NCBI GenBank assembly: GCA_036257465.1
Contig: DATAFO010000036.1
Coordinates: forward strand, 13,189-77,188
DNA from: Solirubrobacterales bacterium
GTDB taxonomy: Bacteria; Actinomycetota; Thermoleophilia; Solirubrobacterales; 70-9
DNA length: 64,000 nt
Direction: 5' to 3'
A program made the translations under genes and the position numbers. Below are positions 12,603 through 62,526 of this stretch, in pieces. Every line of letters starts with the position of its first letter. Within the stretch, counting starts at the first letter, position 1. The notes below the pieces were generated by a model. That model was not told where the DNA came from. It searched no databases and saw only the letters and a program-made list of their open reading frames with translations.

Positions 12603-13820
12603 ATGACGCGGCGAGTGGTCATTGTGGGTGGCGGTGTGGCCGGCCTGGAGGCGTTGATGGCGCTGCACGATCTGGCCGGGGATCGCGCCGAGATCACGCT
12701 CGTGGCGCCCGATCCCGACTTCGTCTACAAGCCGCTGATGGTGGAGGAGCCGTTCGACCTCGGCCCTGCGGAGCACCACGCGCTGGCGCCCTTGGCGGAG
12801 GAGCTCGGTGCTCGCTTGGTCCTGACGGCCGCGCGAAGCGTGCAACCGGACGAGCACACGGTGGCGCTCGCCGACGGCTCGAGGCTGGACTACGACTTTC
12901 TGGTGGTCTGTGTGGGCGGGCGCTTTCGTCCCTCCCTCGAGGGCGTGAGAACTTTTCCGTCGGGCGGCGAGCCGCTGCGAATCAACGAGATCGTGAACGG
13001 CCCGGACGGGCCCCGGCGGATCGCGTTCGTGGTGCCATCCGGAGTCACCTGGGCACTGCCGATCTACGAAGTTGCGCTGATGACGCAGCGGCGCGCCCTC
13101 GAGCTGGGTCGCGATGAGGTGGGGCTGGTCATCGTGACGCCCGAGGAGGCACCGCTGGCCCCGTTCGGACCCACGGCGAGCGCCGCGGTTGGGGAGCTAC
13201 TCGCTGGGCGTGGCATCGAGATCGAGCTCGGCGCTCACGTCCAGCACTGGGATGGGAGCGAGCTCGTCGTGGCCCCGGGCGACCGGCGCATCCAGGCTGA
13301 TGAGGTGATCGCGTTGGCGACGATGGACGGGCCCGAAATCGAAGGCCTGCCTATGGATTCGGCGGGCTTCATCCCGATCGACGAACACGCGCGGGTGGCC
13401 GGCGTGGAGGACGTCTACGCGGCCGGCGATGGCACGAACTTCCCGATCAAGCAGGGCGGGCTCGGCACTCAGCAGGCAGACGCCGCGGCCGCGCAAATCG
13501 CAGGTCGGCTCGGCGCCGCGATCACCGTGGAGCCGTTTCACCCGGTGCTCCGCGGCAAGCTTCTCACCGGGGAGGAGTCGCTTCACCTTCGTGCCGACGT
13601 GGGGGGTGGCGGGGGCATTGAGGAAGCCTCGCTCGACTGCCTGTGGTGGCCACCGCACAAGATCAGCGGCCGCTACCTCGCGCCGTTTCTCTACCACGGG
13701 GAGGTTCACGCAGAGCCCGAGCCGCCGCGAAGGTCTCTCGACGTCGAGGTCGCGCTTCCGGCCGAGTGGCATTCCGAGCCGCTGGCGCTTGACCCGTACA
13801 GAGCCCCGAAGATCGACTGA
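12603..13820 (+). CDS. FAD-dependent oxidoreductase, SQR/NDH-2 superfamily, lacking the SQR redox cysteines (paralogue A)
   Basis: VVIVGGGVAGLEA dinucleotide motif, DVYAAGDGTNFPIKQGGLGTQQA, and WWPPHKISGRYLAPFL. At the SQR Cys160-equivalent position it has PSGVTWALPIYE, with no Cys. Start is ATG 12603 inside the longer ORF. Confidence 0.8.
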   Translation: MTRRVVIVGGGVAGLEALMALHDLAGDRAEITLVAPDPDFVYKPLMVEEPFDLGPAEHHALAPLAEELGARLVLTAARSVQPDEHTVALADGSRLDYDFLVVCVGGRFRPSLEGVRTFPSGGEPLRINEIVNGPDGPRRIAFVVPSGVTWALPIYEVALMTQRRALELGRDEVGLVIVTPEEAPLAPFGPTASAAVGELLAGRGIEIELGAHVQHWDGSELVVAPGDRRIQADEVIALATMDGPEIEGLPMDSAGFIPIDEHARVAGVEDVYAAGDGTNFPIKQGGLGTQQADAAAAQIAGRLGAAITVEPFHPVLRGKLLTGEESLHLRADVGGGGGIEEASLDCLWWPPHKISGRYLAPFLYHGEVHAEPEPPRRSLDVEVALPAEWHSEPLALDPYRAPKID

Positions 13821-13837
13821 CGCGCGGGTGCCTGGAG

Positions 13838-15169
13838 CTAGCCTGCCGCTGCTCTCCATCGGCGTCGGCGCTCGGCATATGCCGGCGGGATGACCAGGTT
13901 CATCTCTTCGACCAGATCGAGCCACTCCAGCGCGCCGGCGACGTTTCCAAGCCGCGCATCTGAGTCCGCTACCGCGAGCGCGAATTCGACCGCGTCGCGG
14001 TGCTCCGCCTCCGATTCCACAGCCTCCTTGATGTCCTCCGGCGCCTCCTCCCGCTCGATGGGTGTGCGCTCGCGTCGTTTCGCGGCCAGGTACGGCCCGA
14101 GATAGCGCCCGGCGGCCTTGGCGGGCGCCCACCAGGTCGCCCCGACGTCCACATCGGCCGTCTCGAGCAAGAGCGGAACCGCGCCCGTGACGAGCGCGGC
14201 GCGGAGGTGCGGACGGAACCCCGCTGCGGCAACGTGGGCGCCGGCCGCGGCGGCAATCGCCTTCGCCGCCACCTCCGCCTGCTGGGCGGCCAGGCCTCCC
14301 TGCTTAATGGGAAACCAGGTCACGTCACCGGCCGCCCAGACACGGTCGAGCCCGGCAACGTGCATCCGGGTGTCGGTCGGGACGAAGCCGCGCCAGCGCT
14401 GGGGAAGCCCGGTGATCGTTGGAACCTCCGCTGCCGGCAGGGCGACGGCGTGGTCGGTCCGGATCGACCCTCCATCGGCGAGCCGAACCCTTCCGCTTTC
14501 GAACGAGGTCACGACGGCGGAGGTCTCGACGCCGACCCGCGTATCTCTCAGCAGTGCCCGCAGCGCCCGCGCCGGACCCGCGCCCATCATCTCCAACGGC
14601 TCGGCCTCGTGAGTGACCACCGCGATCTTGGCACTCGCGGGCGACCGCGCCTTCAGGTGAGACGCCGTCAGCAATGCAAGCTCGTACGCGGCGAGCGACC
14701 ATTTCACCTCTGGTGGCACCAGGAATGTCAGCCGCTTACCGGGATCGCGTCCAAGCTGTTCGAGGAGCGCGGCGAAGAACCCTCGTTCGCTGGGATCGCC
14801 AAAGGTGAGCGCTCCCGGCACCGCCCGTACGGGCCGGGTGCCTGTAGCCACCAGCAGCGCGTCGAACCGGATCCGGTCCCCCTCAGCGGTGGTCACCGTC
14901 CTGCCGGCGGCGTCCACGGAGGCGAGCGCGCCCTTGCGGAGCGAGGCGCGGTGTTCAGCGGTGACATCGGCGAGTTCGACGCGCTGAGCCTGTCCGATCC
15001 CGAAGGGTTCCGCCACGAACAGCGGTCGATGGACGAACTCCGGTTCGGGCGCGAGCAGCTGAATTCGTACGGTCTCGGGCGCCCGTGCCCGCAGTGTGAG
15101 CAACGCTTCCAATGCGGCGACCCCGCCACCAGCGATGACCACGTTGAAGGGTTCTTCGCGGTCGTCCAT
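13838..15169 (-). CDS. FAD-dependent oxidoreductase, SQR/NDH-2 superfamily, cysteine-free, with a C-terminal helical extension (paralogue B)
   Basis: VVIAGGGVAALEA, RVWAAGDVTWFPIKQGGLAAQQA, and WWAPAKAAGRYLGPYL. I found no Cys in the 443-aa translation. The extra tail is EAEHRDAVEFALAVADSDARLGNVAGALEWLDLVEE. Confidence 0.8.
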   Translation of the reverse strand: MDDREEPFNVVIAGGGVAALEALLTLRARAPETVRIQLLAPEPEFVHRPLFVAEPFGIGQAQRVELADVTAEHRASLRKGALASVDAAGRTVTTAEGDRIRFDALLVATGTRPVRAVPGALTFGDPSERGFFAALLEQLGRDPGKRLTFLVPPEVKWSLAAYELALLTASHLKARSPASAKIAVVTHEAEPLEMMGAGPARALRALLRDTRVGVETSAVVTSFESGRVRLADGGSIRTDHAVALPAAEVPTITGLPQRWRGFVPTDTRMHVAGLDRVWAAGDVTWFPIKQGGLAAQQAEVAAKAIAAAAGAHVAAAGFRPHLRAALVTGAVPLLLETADVDVGATWWAPAKAAGRYLGPYLAAKRRERTPIEREEAPEDIKEAVESEAEHRDAVEFALAVADSDARLGNVAGALEWLDLVEEMNLVIPPAYAERRRRWRAAAG

Positions 15170-15175
15170 CGCTGC

Positions 15176-16171
15176 TCAGACCACGGCCACGACGATCACA
15201 AGGTAAACGGCGATCGAGAGCAGGTCCTGAATGACGGTTGCGAGCGGCCCAGAACCAAAGGCTGGATCCAGGCCGAGGCGCTGTAAGGCGGCCGGTAAGG
15301 CCATCGCCACGAGGGTCGCGATCGAACAGCTCGCGAACATCGCCAGGGCCACCGCCAGCGCGACGTCTGCATCGCCCCAGCCGATCAGCGCGAAGACCAG
15401 AAACGCGGCTCCGATCACGATGCCCACCACCAGGCCTGTGACAACCTCACGGCGCAGCACGGAACGCACCGTGATCCCGGCGGCGAGCGCTCGGATCAAC
15501 ACGGTCTCGGTCTGAGTGCCGACGGCATCGGCCATGTAGACCACCGCGGGAATGAAGAACGCAAGCAGCACGTTTGCCTTGAGCTGCTCTTCGAAGCCGC
15601 CGACGATCGCGGTTGCCCCCATCGCGCCGAGCAGGCCGACGAGCAGCCAGGGCAAGCGATGCCACAGCCGCTGCGTGACCTGCTCCTCCGCAGCGCCGCG
15701 AGCGCGAGCGCTACCGGCCAGGTAGCCGCCAAGGCGCGCGAGGTCCTCATCGTGCTCGTTGAGCAACACCTGCAGCATCCGGTACGGGGGGATCAATCCC
15801 ACGAATAGGCCGTTGGCATCCACCACCGCCAGGCTGCACTCGTGACGCTTCACGATCTGACGGGCAGCGCGCTCCTGATCCGTCTCGGGACCCACGATGG
15901 GGGGGTCGGCGTCCATCACGTCCTCGACGCCGGCCTTGGGGTCAGCGGCCAGCAGGTGCTCGATCGAGATCAAGCCTACGAGCCTCCCTGCGTCGAGTAC
16001 GACGACATCCTCGGCGCATCGGAACTTGCGCCCTGCCAGCCCGTGCCTGACGTCCCCCACCGACTGGTCGCGCCGGGCAAAGGGCACGCTTCGGGTCGCA
16101 TACTCCGCCGCCACCCCTAGCAAGGCGTCGGGCTCGGACCGTTCCGCTGGTATCTCCAAGGAACCGGTCAT
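15176..16171 (-). CDS. mgtE: MgtE-type divalent cation transporter (CBS pair plus MgtE membrane domain, no N-domain)
   Basis: CBS-like [19 protein letters not shown] and [20 protein letters not shown], then the MgtE TM signature [19 protein letters not shown] and [12 protein letters not shown]. It lies 6 nt upstream of paralogue B on the same strand. Confidence 0.8.
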
Positions 16172-16240: not shown

Positions 16241-16984
16241 GTGCTAGGCCTACCGACCGGCGTGCGAGCGTGCCTGTTTGACCTCGACGGGGTGCTGACC
16301 AAGACTGCGGTGGTACACGCGGCAGCCTGGAAGCAGATGTTCGACGAGTACCTTCGCCAGCGGGCGGAGCGCACGGGCGAGAAGTTCGCGCCCTTCGACG
16401 CAGGGGCCGATTACGGCAAGTACGTCGACGGCAAGCCACGGTATGACGGGGTGCGCTCGTTCCTGGCCTCGAGGGGCATCGAGTTGCCCAAAGGAAACGA
16501 CGACGACCCGCCCGGTGCCGAGACGGTCCGAGGGCTCGGAAACCGCAAGAACGAGCTGGTGCTGCAACTGATCCGCGAACGGGGGGTGGAGCCCTATGAG
16601 GGATCTGTCCGCTATCTCGAGGCGGCGCGCGACGCGGGGCTTCGCCGGGCGGTGGTCTCCTCCAGCACCAACTGCCACGATGTCCTGCTCGCTGCCGGAA
16701 TAGAGGAGTTCTTCGAGGTGAGGATCGATGGGGTCGTGGCCGAGCGCGAAGGGCTGAAGGGCAAGCCCGCCCCCGACACGTTTCTCGCCGGCGCGCGCGA
16801 GCTGGGGGTCACGCCCGAGGAGGCCGCCGTGTTCGAGGACGCCCTCGCCGGAGTGGAGGCGGGACGGGCCGGCGGCTTTGCCTGCGTCGTCGGCGTCGAC
16901 CGCGTCGCACACGGGGAGGCGCTGCGCGAACACGGTGCGACCGTGGTCGTTAAGGATCTTTCCGAGTTGTTGAAAGAGCGATGA
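16241..16984 (+). CDS. pgmB: beta-phosphoglucomutase-family HAD hydrolase
   Basis: [42 protein letters not shown] and [11 protein letters not shown]. Coupled to the GH65 gene by an ATGA overlap, the classical pgmB-phosphorylase pair. Confidence 0.85.
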
Positions 16985-19341
16985 TCAGCCACCCCTGCTT
17001 CAGCTGCGAGCCGTGGGAGGTCAGGGAAACCCACCTCGACCTCTCGGTCCTCGCCCACTCGGAGTCGATCCTGGCGCTCTCGAACGGCCACATCGGCATG
17101 CGTGGAAACCTCGAGGAAGGCGAGCCCCACGGCCTTCCAGGCACCTACCTGAACAGCCTTTATGAGACCCGGCCGCTGCCCTATCCGGAGGGCGGCTATG
17201 GGTACCCCGAGGCGGGACAGGCGGTTGTCAACGTCACCAACGGCAAGATCATTCGACTGCTGGTCGACGACGAGCCGTTCGACGTCCGCTATGGAGAGCT
17301 GCGAAAGCACGAGCGGGTCCTCGACTTCCGCGCCGGCGTCCTGCGGCGCGACGCCGAATGGGTGTCGCCCGTGGGACAGGCGGTCCGGGTTTCGTCCACG
17401 CGACTCGTGTCGTTTGCCCAGCGGGGGGTGGCCGCGATCATTTACGAGGTCGAGCCGCTCGAGGCGGCCGCCCGTTTCGTGATCCAGTCCGAGCTGGTTG
17501 CCAACGAGCCGCTTCCCGAGGCGGCAAAGGGCGACCCGCGGGTGGGAACCGGCGCCAGCGAAGCGCTGCACTCCGAGGACTTTGCCCACAACGAGCTGCG
17601 GGCGGTGCTCGCACATCGCACTGCCGCGAGCCAGCTGTTGATGGCCGCGGGGATGGACCACGTGATCGAGGACGCCCCGGACGCCACGACGACGGCGGCC
17701 GAGGCGACGCCCCATCTCGCCCGAGTGACGGTTGCCACCGAGCTCGAGCCGGGACAGACCCTTCGCCTGGTTAAGCTGCTTGCCTACGGCTGGTCGGGCC
17801 GGCGCTCGCTCCCATCCGTACGCGATCAGGTCGAGGCGGCGCTCGCCAGCGCGCGGCGCAGTGGATGGGAGGGCCTCGCCGAGGGGCAGCGCCAGTATCT
17901 GGACGAGTTCTGGGATCGCGCCGATGTCGACCTCGAGGGTGACTCCGACATCCAGCAAGCGGTTCGCTTCGCGCTCTTTCACACCCTGCAGGCCGGGGCC
18001 CGCGCCGAGCAGCGCGCGATCCCGGCCAAGGGCCTGACCGGGTCGGGCTATGACGGGCACACCTTCTGGGACACCGAGGCGTACGTGCTGCCCGTCCTCA
18101 CCTACACAGCGCCGCACGCGGCGCGCGACGCGCTTCGCTGGCGCCACTCCACCCTCGACCTCGCGCGCGCGCGGGCGGAGGTGCTCGGGCTCGATGGCGC
18201 CACGTTCCCGTGGCGCACCATCCGGGGCCGGGAGTGCTCGGGCTACTGGCCCGCCGGCACCGCGGCGTTTCACATCAACGCCGCGATCGCCGACTCCGTG
18301 ATCCGCTACACGCAGGCGACGGACGACGAGGACTTCGAGCGCGAATTCGGCGTCGAGTTGCTCGTGGAGACCGCGCGGATGTGGCGCTCGCTCGGCCACC
18401 ACGATGTGCACGGGAACTTCCGCATCGACGGGGTCACCGGGCCGGACGAGTACAGCGCGATCGCCGACAACAACGTCTACACGAACCTGATGGCGCAGCG
18501 GAACCTCCGCGGGGCCGCCGATGCGCTCGAGCGCCAACCCGAGCGAGCGCGCGAGCTGGGCGTGGACGCGGAGGAGGCGGCGAGCTGGCGCGACGCGGCG
18601 GAGGCGATGCTCGTCCCCTACGACGAGACGCTCGAGGTGCACCCGCAGGCCGAGGAGTTCACCGAGCACGCGGTCTGGGATTTCGAGGGCACGTCACCTG
18701 AGCAGTACCCCCTGATGCTGCACTTCCCCTACTTCGACCTGTACCGCAAGCAGGTCTGCAAGCAGGCAGATCTGGTGATGGCGCTGTTCACTCGGGGCGA
18801 CGCGTTCTCGGCCGAGGAGAAGGCGCGCGACTTCTCCTACTACGAGCCGCTGACAGTGCGCGACTCCTCGCTTTCGGCGTGCATCCAGGCAGTGGTCGCA
18901 GCCGAGGTCGGACACCTGGAGCTTGCCTACGACTACTTCGGCGAGGCGGCGCTCCTCGACCTCGGTGACCTTCACCACAACACCCGCGACGGGGTTCACC
19001 TTGCGGCCCTGGCGGGCGCCTGGATCGCCGCGGTGGCGGGCTTCGGCGGAATGCGCGACCACGGCGGCGAGTTGAGCTTCGCTCCACGGCTCCCCGCGGA
19101 GCTCGCCCGGCTCGCCTTCCGTGTCTGCTTCCGGGGGCGGCGGATCAAGGTCGAGTTCGATCACCGTCGGGCGCGGTACATGCTGCGGGAAGGAGCCGCT
19201 CTTGAGATCACGCACCATGGTGCGGCGGTGACGATTCCGGCCGACGCGCCGGTGACGCGCGAAATTCCAGCCGTCCCGGCGAAGGAGGCCCCGAAGCAGC
19301 CGCCGGGGCGCGCACCGGCCCGGCGCCGCGCCGCGAGCTGA
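16981..19341 (+). CDS. glycoside hydrolase family 65 disaccharide phosphorylase (trehalose/maltose/kojibiose type)
   Basis: [27 protein letters not shown] (catalytic loop), and [19 protein letters not shown]. 786 aa. Confidence 0.9.
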
Positions 19342-20478: not shown

Positions 20479-20616
20479 CGGTACCTCAGTGCTCTCGTGG
20501 GGCCATGGACGGGAAGGAGCGTCGCCGCTCCAGCAGCCGGGGCCAATCGTGGTCGGTGCGGGACGTGCTCCGTGGAAAGCACGGACCCGGGCTGCGATGC
20601 GCCACACTGCTGAGGG

Positions 20617-21207
20617 GTGAACCTCGGCCAGGATCGCGACGTGCGACTGAGCTTCACACGCAAGCTGCCCCTGACCCAAGCGGCGCTCGAGTTCGCCGAG
20701 GCCCGCCACGCGCGACAGCGCCGTCTGGTCGACGATGCCGCGTTCCTGATGCATCCAGTCGAGGTCGCGTCTCTGCTCGAGCGCGGGGCAGACCCGGATC
20801 ACGTGGTCGCGGCCGCGGTCTGCACGACGTGCTGGAAGCCACCGACGCCGAGCGCTCCGACCTCGAGCAGCGATTCGGCCCTGCGGTCAGCGATCTCGTT
20901 GTGGCGGTCAGCGACGACCCGGCAATTCCCAATGAGGAGGCGCGCAAGGACGGGCTTCGCGGCCGCGTGCAGCGCGAGAGCGGATACGCCCTCGCGGTCT
21001 ACGCCGCCGACAAGATCTCGAAAGGTGCGCGAGCTCCGCGATCTGATGGCGAGCGAGGCTCAGCCCGCCGAGGCCGAGAGCAAGCTCGCGCGCCATCGTA
21101 GGTCGCTGGCAATGCTCGACCGGGAGCTTCCCGGCAGCCGGCTGGTAGAGCTGCTGCGGTTCGAGCTCGAGGCGCTCGACGTGTTGCCGCCTCACGGCGA
21201 GCGCTGA
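20617..21207 (+). pseudogene. HD-domain phosphohydrolase (RelA/SpoT-type (p)ppGpp-hydrolase-like) with two compensating frameshifts
   Basis: Homology runs across three frames. First frame: LPLTQAALEFAEARHARQRR..FLMHPVEVASLL..VVAAAV. Second frame: LHDVLEATDAERSDLEQRFGPAVSDLVVAVSDD...YAADKISK. Back in the first frame: VRELRDL...LELLRFELEAL. The shifts are at 20820/20821 (one base missing before CTG CAC GAC) and in the aaa run at 21021-21023 (one extra base). Confidence 0.65.
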
Positions 21208-21234: not shown

Positions 21235-21702
21235 CTATGCCGCCGCCCCGGCCTCACTCGGCTTCGAATCGCTCAGAAGCCGCGCGTCCGGTGGGATCAC
21301 CAGCACCGGATGGTGGGCGAGATGGAGCAGGCGTTGAGCGACGCTGCCCAGAACGACACCGAGGACGGATGAGTGGCCCCGCGTGCCGACGACGATCAGG
21401 TCGGCGTCCACCCGGTCGGCAATGTCCGCGATCCCGGACCCGGGGCCACCGGCGAAGATGGTCGCCTTCTCGACCCGGGTCTCGATCCCCTCCGACGAGA
21501 CCTCGGAAGCCTGGCGGTCGATCTCCGCCTGGATCTCGGGCTCATCCGGGTGGATCGGGCCGCCGCCCTTGCCGGCGATGTCCTGCTCGACGTGAGCGAT
21601 CACCAGCCTTGCGTCGTCCCGCCGGGCCAGCTCGACCGCGAAGTGCAACGCGCGCTTGGCGCCGTCCGATCCGTCCAGGCCGACGACGATCGTCTTGAAC
21701 AT
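21235..21702 (-). CDS. universal stress protein (UspA family)
   Basis: MFKTIVVGLDGSDGAKRAL and DADLIVVGTRGHSSVLGVVLGSVAQRLLHLAHHPVLVI (the G-2x-G-9x-G(S/T) ATP motif). It lies 14 nt downstream of paralogue C. Confidence 0.9.
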   Translation of the reverse strand: MFKTIVVGLDGSDGAKRALHFAVELARRDDARLVIAHVEQDIAGKGGGPIHPDEPEIQAEIDRQASEVSSEGIETRVEKATIFAGGPGSGIADIADRVDADLIVVGTRGHSSVLGVVLGSVAQRLLHLAHHPVLVIPPDARLLSDSKPSEAGAAA

Positions 21703-21716
21703 CTGGGACCTCCTCG

Positions 21717-23105: not shown

Positions 23106-23128
23106 CTCGACTCCGGCTCCCGGCGCGC

Positions 23129-23377: not shown

Positions 23378-23556
23378 CAGCTTCCCCTCTCCCACATCTC
23401 ACCCCTCACGGTACGGTGGCAAGCAAGACCCGCCATCGGGAGAAAGTGCGAGACCAGCCTCCGTAGCCGCCACCGAGAAAGTGCGCCCAGTGGCCTCAGG
23501 CAGGCGGTCAGACATAGTTTCGAGACGGACAACGACCTCAATCGAGGGGAGCGCTC

Positions 23557-51930: not shown

Positions 51931-51964
51931 GCCTCGCGTCGCGGCGACGGGCCCGCTTGACCGA

Positions 51965-53348: not shown

Positions 53349-54764
53349 TCAGCCGCGGATCGAGGGCATGCCCTCGATCAGCCGCAGGTACTGGACGAGA
53401 TGCCGGCTGCCGAGAAACCGCTCGGTGATCCGCTGGCGGGCGGCGGCACCGATCCTCGCGGCGCGATCCGGATCGCCCAGCAGCTCGGTGCACGCCCTGC
53501 CAAATGCCTCGAGGTCCTCCGGGTCGTCGAGGAGCACGCCGGTCTGACCGTCGGTGATCATGTCCTGAATCGCGCCGCGCCGGCTCGCGATCACGGGCCG
53601 CGCCTTCCACATCGCCTCGGCAACGGTGAGGCCAAAGCCCTCCGCAAGACTCTTCTGGACGACCACCTGCGCCCGTCGCTGGATCGCGTTCACCATCGCG
53701 GCGTTCTCGGAGATGTCGTCCATCGGCAGGCAGGCGAGGTGCACTCGCTCGCGGGCGGGCGCCGGCAGCGCCGCCCATCGCTTGCGGACCTCGGTGAGGA
53801 CCGCCGCCCCCTCGGGATCGTCCGATACCGCCTCCACGGCGGGCCCCGCGAGGACCAGGTGCGCCGAGTCGGGGCCGTGGCCGACGAACCCCCTCAGAAC
53901 CCCGATCGGGTCCTTGAGCGCGTCCCAGCGCGACACCTGGACAACGGCGTTCACGTCGCCCGGTAGCGGGGCTTGCTGGTCGATTACGGCACGCCGGTCG
54001 ACCCGTCCTGGGCTCCCGTCGACACGCCTGTAGGCGGGCGTCGCGTCATCCGGCGACGAGAGCCCGATTACCCCGAGGATCGCTGTCACCGCCTCCGGTG
54101 TGAGGTCCTGGTTCTTGGGCGAGAAGGCGTCGATCGAGGGCGGGACGATCCACACGTGCTCCGGGTCGAGGCCCGCCCAGACGAACTCGCGCCGCGAGAA
54201 GACGTAGGCGTCGGCGGGCTGTACGTAGGGGCGGAGGAAGTCCCACGCGCCCCGAGCGATGTCGTTGGGGAGATCCATCCCGACGTGACAGCGCCACAGC
54301 ACCGTCGCGCCGACGCCGAGCATGGGTGAGACGAGGCCGGCCGTCTGCGGGTCGTGGCAGAAGACGAGGTCGCCGGCGCGCACCGTGGGCGCGAGCTCGC
54401 GCGCGTTTGCCTCCAGCGTTTCCTCGTAGTGGGCTCGCTCCGCGTCACCGAGCTCGCCGCCATCCCCCGGCCACCCGTGCAGGCGGTTGTGGATCCGCTT
54501 CGTGATCGCGAAGAAGTCGGCGTCGCCGTTGATCACCGACCACCGTGCGTCCACGCCGGCGCCGCGTGCGTAGGCCAGCAGCGACTGCAGCAGTTCCGCC
54601 ACGCCCCCGCCGTGGGCGGTCGAGTTCAGGTGCCAGACCGCGCGGCCGCCGAGCACCTCGCCGGCTCGGTCGACCGCAGCCGCGACCTCCTCGTAGCGCT
54701 CTCCGAGGAGGTCGCGAAACCGCTCCGGCGGCAGCGGCGAGATCGGGACGTGAGTGATGGCCAA
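53349..54764 (-). CDS. treT: GT4 glycosyltransferase, TreT-like trehalose synthase
   Basis: HLNSTAHGGGVAELLQSLLAYARGAGVDARW and FFAITKRIHNRLHG match the TreT N-domain as I remember it. The C-terminal GT-B motif SLAEGFGLTVAEAMW is present. Confidence 0.7.
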   Translation of the reverse strand: MAITHVPISPLPPERFRDLLGERYEEVAAAVDRAGEVLGGRAVWHLNSTAHGGGVAELLQSLLAYARGAGVDARWSVINGDADFFAITKRIHNRLHGWPGDGGELGDAERAHYEETLEANARELAPTVRAGDLVFCHDPQTAGLVSPMLGVGATVLWRCHVGMDLPNDIARGAWDFLRPYVQPADAYVFSRREFVWAGLDPEHVWIVPPSIDAFSPKNQDLTPEAVTAILGVIGLSSPDDATPAYRRVDGSPGRVDRRAVIDQQAPLPGDVNAVVQVSRWDALKDPIGVLRGFVGHGPDSAHLVLAGPAVEAVSDDPEGAAVLTEVRKRWAALPAPARERVHLACLPMDDISENAAMVNAIQRRAQVVVQKSLAEGFGLTVAEAMWKARPVIASRRGAIQDMITDGQTGVLLDDPEDLEAFGRACTELLGDPDRAARIGAAARQRITERFLGSRHLVQYLRLIEGMPSIRG

Positions 54765-54859: not shown

Positions 54860-54883
54860 TAGGGGGTCACTAGGGGGTCACTA
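54860..54883. repeat. perfect tandem repeat (tagggggtcac)x2 followed by ta
   Basis: Copies at 54860-54870 and 54871-54881 are identical. Same intergenic region. Confidence 0.7.
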
Positions 54884-54980
54884 CGGAGTGTCCTGCGTGG
54901 GATCCGCCGATGCCGTCGCGTTCGCCGCGACCTAGCGTCTGCGGCCCGATGTTCCGCCGTCGCCCGAGGGAGCAATCAAG

Positions 54981-55166
54981 ATGGGCCTCACCGATCGCCT
55001 CATGACCGGCGTCTGGCTGGCGGGCTTCGTCTATCTCGGCTTCTACGTCTACGAGCTAGTCGTCGGTGCCGGGACGGCGGGCGAGATGGCGGGCCTCACG
55101 GTGGTGGCGGGCATCGTCGTGGTGATGTACGCCGTTCACCTCGCTCGGGGTGCCGGCGCGACCTGA
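54981..55166 (+). CDS. small two-TM membrane protein, family copy 3
   Basis: MGLTDRLMTGVWLAGFVYLGFYVYELVVG...LTVVAGIVVVMYAVHLA aligns with copies 1 and 2 (DRL..T..WLA..YLGFYV). It lacks the charged RLRETRGF tail. Confidence 0.55.
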   Translation: MGLTDRLMTGVWLAGFVYLGFYVYELVVGAGTAGEMAGLTVVAGIVVVMYAVHLARGAGAT

Positions 55167-55192
55167 TTCGGCCCGGTTGACGAACATGGCGC

Positions 55193-55510
55193 TTGATCAC
55201 GATCGCCGTCGGCTACGACAGGCGGCCGGCTGCTCGGGACGCGCTGATCCTCGGAGAGCTCCGTGCCCGAACCACGAACCGCGGTCTCGTGGTTCGGGTG
55301 GAGCCGGGACTGAGCCAGGAGGAAGTCGACCTCTTGGTGATGGGGTCGCGCGGTCATGGGCCGCTCGGATCGGTGCTTCTGGGCAGCACCGCGACCGATG
55401 TCATCGCCGCGGCGCCGTGTCCGGTGGTCGTCGTTCCGCGGCCAGCCGCCGCCGGGGGCGGGCGGCCTAGCGCGCCGCAAGTCGATCCACGCCCTATCCT
55501 GCGCTGCGAC
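55193..55510 (+). pseudogene. USP-like domain with an internal deletion, reading in frame into the next gene
   Basis: ITIAVGYDRRPAARDAL (beta1-alpha1) jumps to VDLLVMGSRGHGPLGSVLLGSTATDVIAAAPCPVVVVPR. About 50 residues of a normal USP are missing. There is no stop before the DUF2090 ATG, and the start is TTG. Confidence 0.45.
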
Positions 55511-56425
55511 ATGGGCCTCGGCTACGACGGACAGCTCTACATCCTCGCCTTCGACCACCGCGGGTCGTTCATCAAGCGGTTTGGGATCGAGGGCGAGCCG
55601 AAGCCGGAAGACGTCAAACGCATCGCCGACGGCAAGCACCTGATCTTCGAGGGACTCGAGGTGGCGCTCGGGCGTGGCGCCGACCCGTCCGTGACGGGTG
55701 CCCTGGTGGACGAGCAGTTCGGCGGCCCGACGCAGGTTCCCGAGCAGGCCAAGGCGAGGGGGATCCGGCTTGCGATGCCGGTCGAAAAGAGCGGCCAGGA
55801 CGAATTCGACTTCGAGTACGGCGACGAGTTCGGCGACCACATCGAGCGCTACGACCCGGATTTCTCCAAGGTCCTCGTCCGTTACAACCCCGACGGCGAC
55901 GCGGACATGAACCGGCGGCAGGCGCAGCGACTGCGGCGCCTGTCCGACTGGCTGCACGAGCGCGATCGCAAGTTCCTCTTCGAGCTGCTGGTTCCGGCCG
56001 AGGAGTCGCAGCTGGAACAGGTCGACGGGGATTCCGACCGCTACGACGCCGAGCTGCGCCCGGAGCTGATGCGTCGGGCGATCGCCGAGCTTCAGGACGC
56101 CGGCGTGGAGCCTGACATCTGGAAGATCGAGGGCGTGGACACCCGCGCCGACTGCGAGCTGATCGCAGCCCAGTGCCGGGCCGGCGGTCGCGACGGAGTC
56201 GTCTGCGTCGTTCTCGGCCGCGGGGCGGACAACGACAAGGTCGATCACTGGCTGCGTCAAGGGGCGCCAACAGAGGGCTACGTCGGCTTTGCAATCGGCC
56301 GTTCGATCTGGGGCGACCCGCTCGCGGGGTTCATCGCCGGCGATCTGAGCCGTGAGGACGCCGCGGGTCAGGCTGCCGACAACTACCTGCGTTTCGTCGA
56401 GGTCTACGAGTCCGCTCGCTCCTAG
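55511..56425 (+). CDS. DUF2090 (IolC C-terminal-like / 2-deoxy-5-keto-gluconate-6-P aldolase-like) protein
   Basis: LYILAFDHRGSF, ALVDEQFG, VLVRYNPDGD, FLFELLVP, PDIWKIEG, and VGFAIGRSIW match the DUF2090 pattern seen fused to IolC kinases. Confidence 0.7.
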   Translation: MGLGYDGQLYILAFDHRGSFIKRFGIEGEPKPEDVKRIADGKHLIFEGLEVALGRGADPSVTGALVDEQFGGPTQVPEQAKARGIRLAMPVEKSGQDEFDFEYGDEFGDHIERYDPDFSKVLVRYNPDGDADMNRRQAQRLRRLSDWLHERDRKFLFELLVPAEESQLEQVDGDSDRYDAELRPELMRRAIAELQDAGVEPDIWKIEGVDTRADCELIAAQCRAGGRDGVVCVVLGRGADNDKVDHWLRQGAPTEGYVGFAIGRSIWGDPLAGFIAGDLSREDAAGQAADNYLRFVEVYESARS

Positions 56426-56602
56426 CGGGACGACCAGCGCGAGGACGCCGGTGAGCCGCTGGACTCCGTAGTGCCCGCGGACGAACTCCGGGGGGCGATG
56501 CGGATGGCCGAACAGGCGACCGGTGGGAGGGTGGGTGATGAGGCCGCGGTTCGACCGTCATGGTCGAACTCAGCGGGTGAACCGACCCAAAGGAGTGGAG
56601 CT

Positions 56603-56802
56603 ATGTCCGTGGCAAAGGTGATCGAGATCACGTCGTCCTCGAGCGAGAGCTTCGAGGACGCGATCGTCAAGGGCATCGAGAAGGCGTCCGAGACCGTGCG
56701 AGACATCCGGGGCGCCTGGGTGAAGGAGCAGATGGTCCGGTCGAGGGCGGCGAGATCGCCTAATACCGCACCGATCTGAAGGTCACCTTCGTGCTCGAGT
56801 GA
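56603..56802 (+). pseudogene. dodecin with a 1-nt deletion and an in-frame TAA
   Basis: The SD aaaggag precedes the ATG. MSVAKVIEITSSSSESFEDAIVKGIEKASETVRDIRGAWVKEQMVR is followed by a frame change (one g lost at 56738-56740). The shifted frame reads VEGGEIA*YRTDLKVTFVLE*, with TAA at 56761-56763 where Glu is expected. Confidence 0.7.
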
Positions 56803-57542
56803 CAAGCCCGGAGTTGGGCTGGCGAAGAGGGGCGGGTCGTCTACGAGAACATCCGCAAGTTCGTCACCTGCATCTTCGCCCACGCAACCCCCGAGGTGGT
56901 GCCGTTTCTGATCTTTGCCCTCTCCGGAGGTGCGGTGCCGCTGCCGCTGACGGCGCTGCAGATCCTGGCCATCGACCTCGGCACCGAGACACTGCCGGCC
57001 CTCGCGCTCGGCCGCGAGCCGGCTGAACCCGGAATCCTCGATCGCCCCCGCGCCCGCGCAAGTCCGGAATCATCGACCGCCCGATGCTGACCCGGGCGTG
57101 GCTCTGGCTCGGCTTGCTGGAGGCGGCCCTCGTAACGGGCGGCTTCTTCTTCGTGCTTGCCAACGCCGGCTGGTCGCCCGGAGACGAAACCGGTGCCGGG
57201 GCGCTTCTTCACGCCGATTACCTGGCGGCGACGACCATGACGTTCGCGGGGATCACTGCCTGTCAGGTCGGGACGGCCTTCGCGGCCCGGACATCACGGG
57301 CTTCCCTGCGCGAGATCGGCGTCTTCTCAAATCCCCTCCTGCTCTGGGGCATCCTCTTCGAGCTGGTGTTCGCCGCCGCGATCGTCTACGTCCCGCCGCT
57401 GCAGGACTTGTTCGCGACCGCTTCGCTCGGTGCCCCTGAGCTTGCGCTCCTGGCGACCTTCCCGTTCATCGTCTGGGGTTCCGATGAGCTACGGCGCTGG
57501 TGGCTTCGCCGCCGAGAGGAATCCGAGACGGGCCGCGGATAG
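56803..57542 (+). pseudogene. C-terminal third of a P-type (P2, Ca/Mg-type) ATPase; 5' two-thirds absent, plus a frameshift
   Basis: It begins immediately after the dodecin stop with [35 protein letters not shown]...[25 protein letters not shown] (TM5-6). It then reads [17 protein letters not shown] only if one C is added to the C5 run at 57045-57049. TM7-10 follow to the stop. There is no N-terminal, phosphorylation or nucleotide-binding domain. Confidence 0.75.
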
Positions 57543-57568
57543 CTCCGTAGTGGCCCCGGAGGAAGTTG

Positions 57569-57817
57569 GTGGGCCGCCGCGGATGGCATAGCACGGCCTC
57601 CGTGCCAGGCTCCGGGGCGATGCCTGTAAGCCGTTGCCCCCACTGCGGAGCCCGCAACCTCGCCATTACGAGCTGGGCGAACGTGGACGTCTGCGCCGAT
57701 TGCGGCCGGCCCCTGGCGACGCGTGATCTTCGAGAGATCGAAGCGGAGGTTCGTCAGCAGCTCTATGGGCGCGCCGATCGCTCCCCGCCCACGCGCACGA
57801 AGCCCGACAGTGAGTAG
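57569..57817 (+). CDS. small zinc-ribbon protein (hypothetical)
   Basis: CPHCGARN-x14-CADCGRP. ggagg sits 6 nt before GTG 57569, and ATG 57620 is an alternative start. It overlaps the next gene by 8 nt. Confidence 0.4.
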   Translation: MGRRGWHSTASVPGSGAMPVSRCPHCGARNLAITSWANVDVCADCGRPLATRDLREIEAEVRQQLYGRADRSPPTRTKPDSE

Positions 57818-59216
57818 TCGCCTCCAGTCCAGGCAGCGCGCAAGGGGATCTCGATTCAGCGATCGCCGGGACGCGGGCCGGGCGCTTGCTCGCGAGCTTG
57901 AGAGCTTCGCCGAGCGCGATCCCGTGGTCGTCGCCCTACCGCGCGGCGGGGTGCCGGTGGGCTACGAGGTGGCGAAGGCACTCGACGCGCCGCTCGACAT
58001 CGGCCTGGTGCGCAAGCTGGGAGCGCCGATGCAACCCGAGCTCGGGATTGGAGCGCTGGGCGAGGGCGGGCGGGCGGTGCTCGACACGGCCGCTGTGAAC
58101 AAGCTCCGGATCTCTCGCGAGGAGCTCGCCGAGATCGTCGAGCGCGAACAACGCGAGCTCGAGCGCCGCCGACGTCGCTACCGTCCCACGCACCCGCCGA
58201 TCGACGTCAACCGGCGGACGGTCATCCTCGTCGACGACGGGCTCGCGACCGGCGTCACCGCCGTCGCCGCCGCCCGCGTGCTGCGGGCACAGGGCGCTCG
58301 CGAGGTGATCCTCGCCGTTCCGACCTGCCCTCGGCACGTCGGTGTCGAGCTGCGAGCGGAGTTCGACGGCTTCGTGTGCCTGACCTCGCCCGACCCGTTC
58401 TACGGCGTCGGAGGCGCATACGTGGACTTCACCCAGACGACGGACCGCGAGGTGCTGGAGTTGCTCGCAGCAGCAAACGGGCGAGCCGGCGAGGCCGCGG
58501 GCTCGGTGCGGAGCGGCGATGACGCCGCCGCCATCACCGAGACGGACCTTGCGATTCCCGCCCGCGACGGCCTCGAGCTCAAGGGAACGCTGCGGGTGCC
58601 CGCGGACCCGGTCGGGCTCGTCATCTTCGTCCACGGCAGTGGCTCGAGTCGGCTGAGCCCGCGCAACCGCGCCGTCGCCGAGCGCCTCAACGTGGAGGGT
58701 CTGGCGACTCTCCTCTTCGACCTTCTCACCGAAGACGAGGCTCGGACCCGCGCCAACGTCTTCGACGTCGACCTGCTCGCCGACCGTCTCGTTGGCGCGC
58801 ACCGCTGGGTGGAGGGAGCCCCGGAGGTCGGGGGCCTGCCGGTCGGCCTCTTCGGCGCGTCGACCGGCGCCGCGGCTGCTCTTCGTGCGGCGGCGGAGCC
58901 AGGGGAGCGTGTTGCCGCGGTCGCCTCCCGGGGCGGTCGTCCCGATCTCGCCGCGTCGGCGCTTCCACACGTCACCGCGCCGACACTGCTCATCGTCGGC
59001 GGCGAGGATCGCACGGTGCTGGAGCTCAACCGGCAGGCCGCGCGCATGCTCGGCGGACAGCACGAGGTTGCCGTCGTCCCGGGGGCCGGGCACCTGTTCG
59101 AGGAGCCCGGGGCGCTCGAGCACGTGTCGCGCCTGGCGGCCACATGGTTCACGGAGCACTTCGCGAGCGCGTCGACGAAGCACCGACAGACGACTGCCGC
59201 CGGCGAAGGGCGATGA
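57810..59216 (+). CDS. phosphoribosyltransferase-domain / dienelactone-hydrolase-type alpha/beta hydrolase fusion
   Basis: The PRTase-like part has [12 protein letters not shown]...[12 protein letters not shown] and [13 protein letters not shown]. The hydrolase part has [30 protein letters not shown] and LIVGGEDR...GAGHLFEE. The start is provisional (GTG 57810). Confidence 0.8.
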
Positions 59217-60558
59217 CCGTTCGGGCGTTGCGCGGACGCCGCGAGTTGTTGCTCGCCGCCATCCGCGACGAGGCCATGCCGTTGACAGGGGCGCCGGGAG
59301 ACCATGACGGCCTCCTCGAGCTGATCGGCGACGCGCGCCTCGTGCTGATCGGAGAGGCGTCGCACGGAACGCACGAGTTCTACCGCCAGCGGGCGGTGAT
59401 CACCAAGCGGTTGATCGAGGAGCACGGCTTCGACGCCGTTGCCGTGGAGGCCGACTGGCCCGATGCCCACAGGGTCACCCGCTTCATACACGGGGCCGAC
59501 GACGACCCGGACGCAGAGGCCGCTCTGCGCGGCTTTCAGCGCTTCCCGACCTGGATGTGGCGCAACGCGGACGTGCTCGACTTCGTCGGATGGCTGCGCG
59601 CTCGAGCGGAGGAGGGGAGCCGGCCCGTCGGCTTCTTCGGCCTCGACCTCTACAGCCTCTACCGCTCGATCGAGTCGGTGATCGACTACCTGGAGCGAAT
59701 CGATCCCGACGCGGCGCGGCGAGCCCGGCTGCGCTATGCGTGCTTCGACCCCTTCGAGGAGAGCAGCGCTACGGACAGGCGGTGGCGATGGGGCTGTCCG
59801 ACTCGTGTCGGCGGGAGGTCCTGCAGCAGCTGATCGACCTCCAGCGGGCCGGCGACACCTATCTGCGCCGCGACGGGATCGCCGCCGAGGACGAGCTGTT
59901 CTATGCCGAGCAGAACGCTCGCCTGGTGGTCGAAGCCGAGTGTTACTACCGCTCGATGTTCGAAGGGGCTGCGGCGTCGTGGAACCTGCGCGACCGCCAC
60001 ATGGCGGAGACGCTCGATCAGCTGCTCGCCCACCTCGACCGGCACGGCGGCGACTCGCGGATCGTCGTCTGGGCTCACAACTCTCACATCGGGGACGCGC
60101 GGCGCACCGAGATGTCGCGACGTGGCGAGCTCAACCTGGGCCAATTCGTCCGCGAGCGCCACGGCGCAGACGCATTCCTGATCGGGTTCACAACGTACGC
60201 CGGAACGGTCAGCGCGGCCTCGGATTGGGACGGTCCGGTCGAGCGCAAGCGCGTGCGCCCGGCGCTTCCGCACAGCTACGAGGAGCTCTTCCACGCGGTT
60301 GCGCTTGGAGACTTCATGCTCAACCTCCGCTCGGTGGGCCCGGCGCCAGCTGCGCTTCACGGGCCCCTGCTCGAACGCGCGATCGGGGTCATCTACCGCC
60401 CGGAGACGGAGCGGCAGAGCCACTACCTGCACGCCAACCTCGCGGAGCAGTTCGATGCGGTCCTGCACTTCGACCACACGCGCGCGGTCGAACCGCTCGA
60501 GCCCACCGCAGGCTGGGTGCGCGGCGAGCCCCCCGAGACTTACCCGACAGCGCTGTGA
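59213..60558 (+). pseudogene. erythromycin-esterase-family protein with a 1-nt frameshift
   Basis: ATGA overlap with the previous gene. [31 protein letters not shown] and FGLDLYSL...ACFDPFEE are followed by a frame switch at about 59759-59763. The second frame reads [11 protein letters not shown]...VVWAHNSHIGD...GVIYRPE. The length of 1346 nt is not divisible by 3. Confidence 0.8.
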
Positions 60559-60583: not shown

Positions 60584-61781
60584 ATGACGTCGAGCTTCCG
60601 GCTCGGTCGGCTGGCCGGGGTCGAGATCGGCATCCACTGGAGCTGGGCGATGATCTTCGCCCTCATCGTCTGGTCGCTTGCCGACGCCGTGTTCCCGGAG
60701 ACGAATCCGGGCCTGGGCGACGGCACGTACGTCGGGATGGCCCTGGTCGCCGTGCTTGCGTTCTTCGCGTCGCTGCTCCTACATGAGCTTGGTCACGCGA
60801 CCCGCGCCACCAAGGAGGGAATGGAGATCGAGGGAATCACCCTGTGGTTGTTCGGCGGCGTCGCCCGCTTTCGTGGCTTGTTTCCCTCCGCCGGAGCGGA
60901 GTTTCGGATCGCGATCGCCGGGCCGATCGTCTCCCTGCTGATCGGGGCTGTCACCCTCGCGGTCGCGCTGCTGCTGCCACTGCCCAACGCCGTCGACGGC
61001 GTCCTCTTCTGGCTCGGCTACATCAATCTCGCCGTCTTGGTCTTCAACTTGATGCCCGCGCTTCCTCTTGGACGGCGGCCGGATGTTGCGGTCGGTCCTC
61101 TGGGCGCGCAAAGGCGACTTCCTCGAGGCGACTCGCACGGCCGCGCTCATCGCGCGCGGCTTCGCGCAGTTCCTGATCGCCTTCGGTGCCCTCACCGTGG
61201 TGCTCGGCGGGGCCATCGGGGGCCTGTGGCTGATCTTCATCGGCTGGTTCCTGCTGGCGGCGGCAGAGGCCGAGCGCGTGGGTGCGGAGACGCACGAGGC
61301 CCTGAGCGGTATCCACGTCGAAGACGTGATGGTCAAAAGCCCCGTTTGCGTCGATCCGGAGCTGGCGCTCGATCAGTTCATGGAGCAGTTCTTCTTTCCC
61401 CACCGACACGTCGCCTATCCGGTTCTGGACGACGGCCGACCCGTGGGCCTGATCTCGTTTCGCTCGGTGCTCGCCCTGCCGCCCGAGTCGTGGTCGGGCC
61501 GGCGAGTCAGAGACGTCATGGTCCCCCTGGAGCGGCTCCCGGTCCTCAGCCCCAGCACCCCCTTGGAGCCTGCGGTGGCGCAGCTCAGTCGCACGGAGTC
61601 GAACCGGGCGCTGGTCCTCGATGGCGACGAGATGGCCGGCCTGCTTTCGATCACCGATGCCACGCGCGTGATCGAGGCCCGAAGGGCGAGCCGGATCGAA
61701 GCGGCAAACGGACAGCCGGCAGCCGGCCCTGAGGACGGGCCCGCTCCCGCTCCCCACCGCGAGCCGGTGACGTCTCGATGA
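60584..61781 (+). pseudogene. M50 (site-2 protease family) membrane metalloprotease with a C-terminal CBS pair, 1-nt frameshift
   Basis: LLHELGHA (HExxH) and FNLMPALPL are followed by one extra base at about 61067-61071. The second frame reads DGGRMLRSVLW (the LDG motif), then CBS repeats VEDVMVKSP...PVLDDGRPVGLISFRSV and VRDVMVP...LVLDGDEMAGLLSITD. The length is 1198 nt. Confidence 0.8.
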
Positions 61782-62080
61782 CCACCATTCGCCAGGTGAT
61801 CGGCCGGCACGGCTACTTCGCCCACGGGGGCAACCCCGATGACGCGAGTCAGACCTGGGCCGAATCGGGGTTCGGTGCGGATGAGGTGGAGGAGTGGCTG
61901 AGGGCGCGGTGCTTTCACCCGAGTACCGCGAGGGACCTCGCCGACGCCGGCGTGACCCCGGAGCTGGCGTCGGTGAAGACGACAGGGGGGCGCGGCGACT
62001 ACGTGGACACCGTCGGCTTCAAGGTGGCCGACAGCGACCTCGAGGTCGAGGAGGCGCGCCACTTGTTGGGCGTGACCTGA
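61778..62080 (+). CDS. hypothetical protein (100 aa)
   Basis: ATGA overlap with the M50 gene and protein-like composition. No family recognised. Confidence 0.4.
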   Translation: MTTIRQVIGRHGYFAHGGNPDDASQTWAESGFGADEVEEWLRARCFHPSTARDLADAGVTPELASVKTTGGRGDYVDTVGFKVADSDLEVEEARHLLGVT

Positions 62081-62103
62081 CAGCAAGAGACAAGGAGCAG
62101 ACG

Positions 62104-62526
62104 ATGACCCAGGTAGACGTGATCGATCGCAGCGTCGAGAAGGCACACATCTGGCTGAACGAGCTGGCCTCAGAGCTTGGCGTCGAGGACCGCAGGGCGG
62201 CTTACCGCGTCCTGCGGGCGTTCCTGCACGCCGTGCGCGATCGGCTGACCGTCAACGAGGCGGCGCAGCTCGCCGCCCAGCTTCCGGAGCTGATCCGAGG
62301 CATCTACTACGAGAACTGGGTTCCCGCGCGGACTCCGATGCGATACCGCAACGTCGATGAGTTCCTGCGCCGGATCGCCGACGAGGCTCTGCTGGAGGGG
62401 GAGACCGAGGCGTCGTACGCATGCACGGCCGCGGCGCGGGTCCTGCGCCGGCACGTCTCCGAGGGCGAGCTGGAGGATGTCCTGGCGGTGCTGCCCGAGG
62501 ACTTGCGCGCGCTGGTCGCCGCTTGA
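62104..62526 (+). CDS. DUF2267 domain protein
   Basis: VEKAHIWLNELASELGVEDRRAAYRVLRAFLHAVRDRLTVNEAAQLAAQLPELIRGIYYENW fits DUF2267. Start is ATG 62104 inside a longer ORF. Confidence 0.7.
   Translation: MTQVDVIDRSVEKAHIWLNELASELGVEDRRAAYRVLRAFLHAVRDRLTVNEAAQLAAQLPELIRGIYYENWVPARTPMRYRNVDEFLRRIADEALLEGETEASYACTAAARVLRRHVSEGELEDVLAVLPEDLRALVAA

Follow-up and report, generated by a model that had tools for sequence, protein, structure and literature searches.

In Mycobacterium tuberculosis, each operon of the DosR regulon carries at least two Dev boxes, palindromes of 18-20 bp with the core GGGAC-N4-GTCCC, in which G5 and C7 are essential (PMC3177182). The OsdR/OsdK region of Streptomyces coelicolor (SCO0167-SCO0219) has already been interpreted as a dormancy-like regulon (PMC5069765), and the lxa locus of Burkholderia cenocepacia, with ~50 genes, is linked to anoxic persistence; its authors note an overlap with the DosR regulon and an FNR-like motif (PMC3721108). 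Here we compare these systems with a stretch of 64,000 nucleotides from a Solirubrobacterales bacterium (contig DATAFO010000036.1, positions 13,189 to 77,188; hereafter the window). Its part 12603-62526 had been described in an original prediction as mirroring the DosR regulon and as a conserved hypoxia/NO (nitric oxide) dormancy island. We found that most operons of this part are preceded by a new dyad, TCCGTR-N5-YACGGA. On balance, we consider it fairly probable that the region is a cluster of low-oxygen and energy-stress genes, probably co-regulated by a factor other than DosR, and partly decaying.

Genes were taken as open reading frames (ORFs) with third-position GC (GC3) support, and families were assigned by Pfam scan. 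When dyads were counted de novo in ~2.5 kb of intergenic DNA, CTCCGTAG stood out; the dyad is often accompanied by a further box, CGGATG, 37 nt downstream as measured from the first base of the left box. Allowing one mismatch at most, CTCCGTASTSNCCC occurs six times against 0.54 expected (0/100 shuffles reach six). The left box with CGGATG at fixed spacing occurs three times against 0.27 expected (0/100 shuffles). The dyad with up to two mismatches is found 18 times against 8.8 expected, a count reached in 1/100 shuffles. Intergenic DNA makes up 3.5% of the window and holds seven of these 18 matches, including all four with no more than one mismatch. The string CTCCGTA[GC]T is rare elsewhere, with only nine occurrences in 2.2 Mb of unrelated loci.

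Dyad or left-arm motifs stand at nine promoter regions of the window, 30-140 nt upstream of start codons. Six of these regions share the core CTCCGTA within an aligned 19-nt flank, and every copy points at its downstream gene. Bipartite copies precede the triacylglycerol/wax synthase (WS/DGAT) gene (CTCCGTAC...GTACGGATG, 44299-44341, minus strand), the dodecin gene (CTCCGTAGTGCCCGCGGAC...CGGATG, 56464-56506, plus strand) and the operon of a Zn-ribbon protein and a phosphoribosyltransferase (PRTase)-hydrolase fusion (CTCCGTAGTGGCCCCGGAG...CGGATG, 57543-57585, plus strand). Between the trehalose synthase gene treT and a small transmembrane (TM) gene, the left arm CTCCGTAGTGACCC is combined with two copies of the direct repeat GGGGGTCACTA, as read on the plus strand (54862-54888, motif on the minus strand). 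The remaining two core copies lie in the divergent promoter region on the hemerythrin-qNOR side (CTCCGTAGCCGCCACCGAG, 23459-23477, plus strand, one mismatch to the dyad) and upstream of the aldo-keto reductase (AKR)-TetR operon (left arm, 30207, minus strand). Generalisation to the dyad adds a perfect copy, TCCGTG-GAAAG-CACGGA (20569-20585), 32 nt upstream of ORF 20617, and two weak copies with two mismatches each, TCCGGA-CTTTC-TACCGA (31394-31410) upstream of the aldehyde dehydrogenase (ALDH) gene and TCAGTA-GCAGC-CACCGA (36518-36534) upstream of the second of three CBS-pair genes. A peptide 'RGHYG' shared by the minus strands of the sites at 56464 and 57543 was considered as a gene remnant and rejected; a stop codon precedes the third copy and GC3 support is lacking.

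Contigs of close relatives (L169-L176) were collected by protein searches followed by contig look-ups, and L172, L174 and L175 retain the motif at orthologous positions. In L172 it is the best-conserved block of the region upstream of dodecin, an intergenic stretch 82% identical overall, and the copy upstream of WS/DGAT is kept in L174, L175 and L176. L171 and L173 carry the motif upstream of a universal stress protein (USP)-TreT pair, places that are new relative to the window, and at position 8046 of L171 it forms the perfect palindrome GTCCGTAC-CGG-CTACGGAC. L169 has a copy before a gene of the Thiamine_BP family (7622-8082), which is inserted between DUF2267 and YbaK and belongs to a segment absent from the window (at 62540-62546). 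Upstream of PRTase-hydrolase genes in other taxa the motif was not found. The dodecin leader downstream of the element (56507-56603) is also conserved in L172; it contains the hairpin GTTCGACC-N5-GGTCGAAC at 56549-56569 and has no Rfam match.

Parts of the gene content are conserved as well. The module of P-type ATPase, PRTase-hydrolase, erythromycin-esterase-like (Ere-like) protein and M50 protease-CBS protein is syntenic in L169 and L170, relatives at 84% and 69% identity. A string of phosphoenolpyruvate (PEP) synthase, NuoEF, formate dehydrogenase (FDH) and FNT channel is shared with L171, L172 and L175, and USP-TreT adjoins FNT-FDH in L171-L173. In L175 (7491-17537) the PpsA-NuoEF-FDH-FNT genes are divergent from WS/DGAT, AdhE and pyruvate:ferredoxin oxidoreductase (PFOR), parts that lie ~20 kb apart in the window, and in L172 (949-2409) RtcB, of the family of the DosR-regulon gene Rv2631, adjoins dodecin. 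Close relatives of the window's PRTase-hydrolase were not found in representative genomes or metagenome contigs, where the best matches reach 55-66% identity. Across 80 loci of many phyla, genes found beside it include USP (7), DUF2267 (6), Ere-like (4), PEP synthase (3), M50-CBS (2), WS/DGAT (2) and Pat (1). Because the same families flank PRTase-hydrolase across phyla, their association is broad and not specifically mycobacterial.

What might read the motif is suggested by its half-site. The MerR operator consensus, TCCGTAC-(4)-GTACGGA, lies inside the promoter spacer (PMC1526738, PMC11049809). The window dyad has a half-site identical to that of the Tn501/Tn21 operators merO, the C before its left arm recurs as in TTGAC-TCCGTAC, and a -10-like hexamer, GAAGTT, follows the right arm. 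The bases upstream of the motif at 56460 read TGGACT. A scan with an E. coli-type promoter model gave no match. Most of these operons are probably co-regulated through the dyad, which is often followed by the -10-like GAAGTT and by CGGATG as a third half-site. Given the half-site shared with the MerR operator, the likeliest mechanism would be a transcription factor, dimeric and possibly of the MerR family, that binds within the promoter spacer or beside it. The window differs from merO in its extra CGGATG box and in the lack of mer genes.

Several observations weigh against co-regulation through a MerR-like dyad in a low-oxygen gene cluster. With a 7-3-7 architecture, the centre of the window dyad is 1 bp shorter than that of MerR (7-4-7), the implied spacer measures 17-18 bp on best-guess hexamers instead of 19-20 bp, right arms are weak at several sites of the window, and the window has no MerR-family gene. 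The left box upstream of PRTase-hydrolase has drifted to TTACGTA in L169. As the motif was itself derived from intergenic DNA, its enrichment there is circular in part, and among the 14 dyad matches outside the training set three are intergenic (binomial P ~0.01, a hand estimate). The low-oxygen/NO role of the region is read from gene content, and the search for a DosR system covered the window and ~10 kb on either side.

An unusual set of regulators lies to the left of the window, ~7-10 kb from its first base (L007, 9581-12454): a sigma-70-family gene (regions 2, 3 and 4; 336 aa) is divergent from a fusion of a MerR-type helix-turn-helix (HTH) with a receiver domain (225 aa; ~8 kb away), followed by a KaiC-like ATPase. 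The fusion protein has Glu instead of Asp at the acceptor position (IVELMISG), its helix is CarH-like and not like that of the mercury-sensing MerR, and no copy of the motif was found upstream of its gene in L007. It is a candidate regulator by proximity only. A bolder version, which we regard as a long shot, is that a dormancy-type gene set of this Thermoleophilia-like lineage was rewired from DosRS to another sensor-regulator acting through the MerR-like dyad; the cluster of alternative sigma factor, MerR-HTH-receiver fusion and KaiC-like ATPase would then be one candidate for that regulator.

Common regulation as such might be illusory. Common stress and central-metabolism genes could have become neighbours by chance, the repeat being lineage-specific or the trace of segmental duplications of promoter-proximal DNA. 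Half of the matches claimed for the DosR regulon are indeed very common domains (USP, CBS, Pyr_redox_2, ArsR, HAD), gene order varies among close relatives, and motif copies could have travelled along with a cassette of small TM protein, flavoprotein and USP that is present in triplicate; the sites at 56464 and 57543 are alike over ~46 nt. However, the motif also stands upstream of genes that are not paralogous (WS/DGAT, TreT, dodecin, PRTase-hydrolase, ALDH, CBS, the HD gene), where the boxes and their spacing alone are kept and the intervening sequence varies. Together with the conserved block in L172 and the recurrence of the same families across phyla, this makes a chance neighbourhood unlikely. 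The repeat might also act as RNA, in a 5' leader in which CUCCGUA pairs with nearby CGGAG/C or with the distal CGGATG (CGGAUG in RNA) to form alternative structures like those of an attenuator or riboswitch. The arms are complementary, one compensatory pair was seen (TCCGTAC/GTACGGA in the window versus TCCGTGC/GCACGGA in L169), and the uniform orientation of the copies and the conserved dodecin leader would fit. Yet the RNAalifold consensus is weak (-10.3 kcal/mol), several of its pairs are broken and covariation contributes unfavourably (+0.69), the left arm TCGGTAC of L175 cannot pair with GCACGGA, and no Rfam family matches, either at the gathering threshold in the whole window or at E<=1 in 54.7-57.9 kb. 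The perfect palindromes at 20569 and in L171 resemble protein-binding dyads, and an RNA element appears very doubtful.

The third alternative is a true DosR/OsdR-type dormancy regulon whose two-component regulator is encoded elsewhere in the genome and whose sites are too degenerate or too diverged to be captured by Dev- or OsdR-box patterns. As far as families and domain architectures go, this locus does overlap with the M. tuberculosis regulon. Pfam found each family named in the original prediction where it had been placed, including the NO- and anaerobiosis-related genes for hemerythrin, qNOR, FDH with FNT channel, and PEP synthase. Judged by how domains are arranged in the M. tuberculosis proteins, the accessory members Rv0571c, Rv2030c, Rv2625c, CtpF, Tgs1 and PfkB are matched, the last just outside the window. 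The actinobacterial DosR core delineated by Gerasimova et al. in 2011 reportedly consists of the regulator, the kinase, USP, DGAT, an Acg-type nitroreductase, ferredoxin, Hsp20 and an Rv2004c-like protein. Going by this list, two of the eight core groups (USP and WS/DGAT) are found in the window and six, the regulator and the kinase among them, are absent: Pfam gives no match to Nitroreductase or HSP20 there, no small standalone FdxA-type ferredoxin was found (Fer4-type matches occur only inside the FdhA-like gene), and an Rv2004c-like protein is missing. NarK2/NarX and NrdZ, which are outside this list, have no counterpart either. Pfam in all GC3-supported ORFs and tblastn with queries entered by hand, covering the window and ~10 kb on each side, detected neither a response regulator of the NarL/DosR type nor a HisKA_3 kinase. 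The absence of DosR/DevS-like genes that had been noted for the window thus extends to its flanks. A DosR orthologue is also missing beside the PRTase-hydrolase gene in 160 other loci, where the best match has 40% identity.

The family overlap takes in Rv0571c, ctpF, otsB, the Rv2626c-Rv2625c and hspX-Rv2030c-pfkB operons, and tgs1 (PMC3177182), and DosR-like regulons such as that of OsdR exist in other actinobacteria (PMC5069765). The conservation of secondary Dev boxes can be very poor; however, each promoter of the M. tuberculosis regulon has at least one well-conserved primary box (PMC3177182). Scans of the whole window and of intergenic DNA only, with 0-2 mismatches, gave 11 near-matches to the Dev-box core GGGWC-N4-GWCCC against 23 expected and 22 to the OsdR form GGGMC-N4-GKCCC against 32 expected, with no exact site for either. 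Near-match density is the same in intergenic DNA as in the whole window, and the relatives are likewise without signal. The cis-evidence therefore speaks against control by DosR or OsdR, and we regard such a regulon as very improbable. Boxes for FNR/Anr, CRP, GlxR, Rex and NsrR gave matches in the window that are all coding or at chance level, with none for FNR, CRP, Rex or NsrR in promoter positions. A hairpin at 28430-28453 (GGGACTGG-N8-CCAGTCCC) was rejected as a Dev-like site; its spacing is wrong, and it lies, terminator-like, between the convergent K-channel and TetR genes. The claim that the window mirrors the DosR regulon thus stands for families and architectures and fails for boxes, core groups and regulator, and the expected shared motif was found in intergenic DNA but is neither a Dev nor an OsdR box.

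Individual assignments fared differently. The single-domain USP is equally close to a Thermus USP and to Rv2623, and Hrp1 ranks tenth among the matches of CBS pair 3 and is absent from those of CBS pair 2, so that neither family is specifically closest to its supposed DosR counterpart. The flavoproteins had been equated with Rv1812c, a gene that lacks a Dev box and is not induced by DevR (PMC3177182). ArsR and the HAD-GH65 pair correspond to Rv0081 and OtsB1 at the domain level and look like parts of ordinary local operons. The palindrome CACAACTACACTACTGTGTGGTTGTG at 41702-41727, directly upstream of the ArsR-MMPL operon (ArsR 41331-41696, MMPL 38984-41317, minus strand), is a likely candidate for an ArsR operator, and ArsR is therefore taken as a local regulator. 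The HAD protein (beta-phosphoglucomutase-like, 16241-16984) and the GH65 phosphorylase/hydrolase (16981-19341; GH65 domain by NCBIfam) form a plus-strand operon that looks like an ordinary pair of disaccharide phosphorylase and beta-phosphoglucomutase.

Decay of many members had been suspected. Querying the window by tblastn with orthologues that are intact in relatives (84-90% protein identity) confirmed it for four genes; in all, at least eight members of the stress module are pseudogenes, and those tested in relatives (ATPase, Ere-like, M50-CBS, dodecin) are intact there. On the plus strand, the Ere-like gene (59213-60558, frameshift at ~59740-59820) and the M50 protease-CBS gene (60584-61781, frameshift at ~61055-61069) are each split over two frames. 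Dodecin (56603-56799, searched with the intact L172 protein) is frameshifted at ~56740, and of the P2-type ATPase there remains Cation_ATPase_C, residues 634-855 or the last ~220 (56824-57542, frameshift at ~57050). The counterparts in L169 are a full P-type ATPase, a PRTase-hydrolase, an Ere-like protein of 448 aa and an M50-CBS protein of 397 aa; the ATPase is also intact in L170 and dodecin (66 aa) in L172. On the minus strand, a flavoprotein gene (37753-38987) is frameshifted, with the N-terminal part of Pyr_redox_2 in ORF 38502-38987 and the remainder in another frame. Searches with the window's own paralogues revealed a small TM gene (42700-42807) and a flavoprotein gene (42289-42593) reduced to remnants, both on the minus strand, as well as a USP tail (~55316-55438) fused ahead of DUF2090. 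The cassette of small TM protein, sulfide:quinone oxidoreductase (SQR)-like flavoprotein and USP accordingly occurs three times: intact at 21235-23377, as remnants at 42289-42807 downstream of WS/DGAT, and as small TM gene with USP tail at 54981-55440. ORF 20617-21207 (plus strand), which matches HD_4 (RelA/SpoT-type HD) at profile positions 1-49 only, reads like out-of-frame sequence thereafter and is probably another frameshifted pseudogene. Split Ere genes were called independently in three metagenome assemblies, so the frameshifts are not errors of one assembly, and since close relatives keep the genes intact, several members are true pseudogenes. The central-metabolism genes of the window appear intact. 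The stress module is under relaxed selection in this population.

The window is ordinary chromosomal DNA of an uncultured, soil-type, high-GC actinobacterium. Several JGI metagenomes and an SRA run contain the same DNA at 99.6-100% identity in overlapping contigs, with four assemblies covering this region, and the organism-named homologues of its proteins are from Thermoleophilaceae/Solirubrobacterales metagenome-assembled genomes (59-68% identity). Going by the names of these homologues, and not by marker genes, the organism is probably Thermoleophilia-like. A mobile genomic island was ruled out because tRNA genes and integrases were not found in the window and GC content is flat (68-72% throughout). 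The proposed conserved dormancy island is borne out as a concentration of functions with modules kept in relatives, but it is not mobile and is probably not wired to DosR. SnoaL proteins, a Zn-ADH and an MFS transporter lie in the left flank, nearer than the sigma factor cluster, and PfkB, AdhE and a three-subunit PFOR follow just beyond the right end. The segment 1-12574, beside the stress cluster, encodes a complete second set of sugar-phosphate enzymes (ROK kinase, G6PD, 6PGD, 6-phosphogluconolactonase, RpiA, transketolase, transaldolase, PGI and two HAD phosphatases).

The genes of the region are predicted to serve NO handling (hemerythrin, qNOR), formate oxidation and export (NAD-type FDH, FNT channel), gluconeogenesis/glycolysis (PEP synthase, GAPDH), aldehyde and acetyl-CoA turnover with protein acetylation (ALDH and a fusion of GNAT with ADP-forming acetyl-CoA synthetase, GNAT-ACD), and the formation of storage compounds and compatible solutes (WS/DGAT, TreT, GH65 with beta-phosphoglucomutase); a stress module comprises USP, SQR-like flavoproteins, P-type ATPase, PRTase-hydrolase, Ere-like and M50-CBS proteins. 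Genes beyond the original prediction are those for MgtE, the K channel, TetR with AKR, GAPDH, ALDH with DUF779, the PatA-type GNAT-ACD, MMPL, TreT, the DUF2090 aldolase-like protein, dodecin, DUF2267 and DUF5661. From the left, two SQR-like Pyr_redox_2 flavoproteins (12603-13820, plus; 13838-15169, minus; paralogues at 38-45% identity with weak SQR matches) are followed by an MgtE-type Mg transporter with a CBS pair (15176-16171, minus). Beyond the HAD-GH65 operon and the HD_4 gene, a minus-strand operon encodes a small TM protein (23129-23377), the third flavoprotein (21717-23105) and the intact USP (21235-21702), which shares 67-71% identity with the USP encoded ahead of TreT in relatives. 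Divergent from it, on the plus strand, are a small TM ORF (23557-23718), hemerythrin (23726-24412), qNOR (24449-26761) and a Cys-rich membrane ORF of 193 aa (26758-27339). The start of this ORF overlaps the qNOR stop codon in the sequence ATGA, so the two are probably translationally coupled; its sole family match, a weak one, is to a transposase DDE domain.

TetR (28537-29277) and AKR (29129-30142), both on the minus strand and assigned by Pfam and NCBIfam, are separated from GAPDH (30215-31327, plus) by a region with the perfect palindrome TGACAGAT-N6-ATCTGTCA (30162-30183), a likely candidate for a TetR operator. The plus-strand genes at 31470-36483 encode ALDH, DUF779, CBS pair 1 (33345-33758) and the PatA-type fusion of GNAT with a complete ADP-forming acetyl-CoA synthetase (33673-36483; Pfam, NCBIfam), and those at 36569-37741 CBS pair 2 (36569-37033), CBS pair 3 (37030-37431) and DUF5661. 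The three paralogous CBS-pair proteins, which match AcuB in a PDB search, thus flank the GNAT-ACD fusion (33345-37431), an arrangement that hints at a CBS-controlled protein-acetylation unit. The WS/DGAT gene occupies 42795-44309 as an ORF and 42795-44273 (492 aa) as called in metagenomes, on the minus strand. It is followed on the plus strand by PEP synthase (45029-47470), a NuoE/F-like subunit (from 47594), the FdhA-like FDH (~49246-51930), a ZIP fragment (51836-52381) and the FNT channel (52413-53327), and on the minus strand by the TreT-type trehalose synthase (53349-54764; Pfam, NCBIfam). Further plus-strand genes are the third small TM protein (54981-55166) with the USP remnant, the intact DUF2090 aldolase-like gene (55511-56425), the Zn-ribbon ORF (57620-57817), the intact PRTase-alpha/beta-hydrolase fusion (57810-59216) and, at 61778-62526, a 100-aa ORF without family and DUF2267 (62104-62526), the last two kept in L169.

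Set against the M. tuberculosis DosR regulon, the locus thus shares USP, CBS-pair, M50-CBS (Rv2625c), PRTase-hydrolase (Rv0571c), Ere-like (Rv2030c), WS/DGAT (tgs1) and P2-type ATPase (ctpF) families, to which PfkB outside the window and RtcB in a close relative may be added. Window and flanks differ in lacking DosR and DosS/T, and the window in lacking Dev boxes, an Acg-type nitroreductase, HspX and FdxA. The counterparts of the syntenic module of the window lineage belong to separate DosR-controlled loci in M. tuberculosis (PMC3177182). That these four genes form a conserved string suggests that CtpF, Rv0571c, Rv2030c and Rv2625c have a function in common. To our knowledge, these four proteins are still poorly characterised. 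The wild population analysed here is losing exactly this four-gene module, which makes it a natural experiment on when such genes stop being useful. Like the OsdR region, the window is an actinobacterial chromosomal region in which USPs and a hemerythrin-domain protein occur together with an enzyme of the pyruvate/PEP dikinase type and genes of anaerobic respiration, but the OsdR box AGGGCCGATCGGCCCT, the OsdK/OsdR pair and nitrate reductase have no equivalent in it. In Streptomyces/Kitasatospora PRTase-hydrolase loci none of the window's families adjoin this gene, save for single weak AKR-like and TetR matches.

In its logic, the lxa locus of B. cenocepacia may be regarded as the closest analogue. 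It likewise contains USPs, a cation ATPase, a phosphofructokinase-type kinase and genes for storage polymers and alcohol metabolism, and one shared inverted repeat stands upstream of genes at many intergenic points, read by a type of regulator other than DosR. It belongs to another phylum, however, and its motif is FNR/Anr-like (TGA-N6-TCA). It also includes six USPs and regulators, whereas in the window a single USP is intact and a matching regulator was not seen, and the function of lxa was shown experimentally. If the rewired reading holds, it would reveal that bacterial persistence can be governed by a master switch of a new kind and imply that the content of a regulon outlives its regulator across Actinomycetota. 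Should the motif indeed tie these operons together, the DosR-type survival set would be an old, portable module whose wiring has been swapped between lineages: mycobacteria use DosR, Streptomyces OsdR, Burkholderia an FNR-like factor and, as proposed here, this lineage a MerR-like one.

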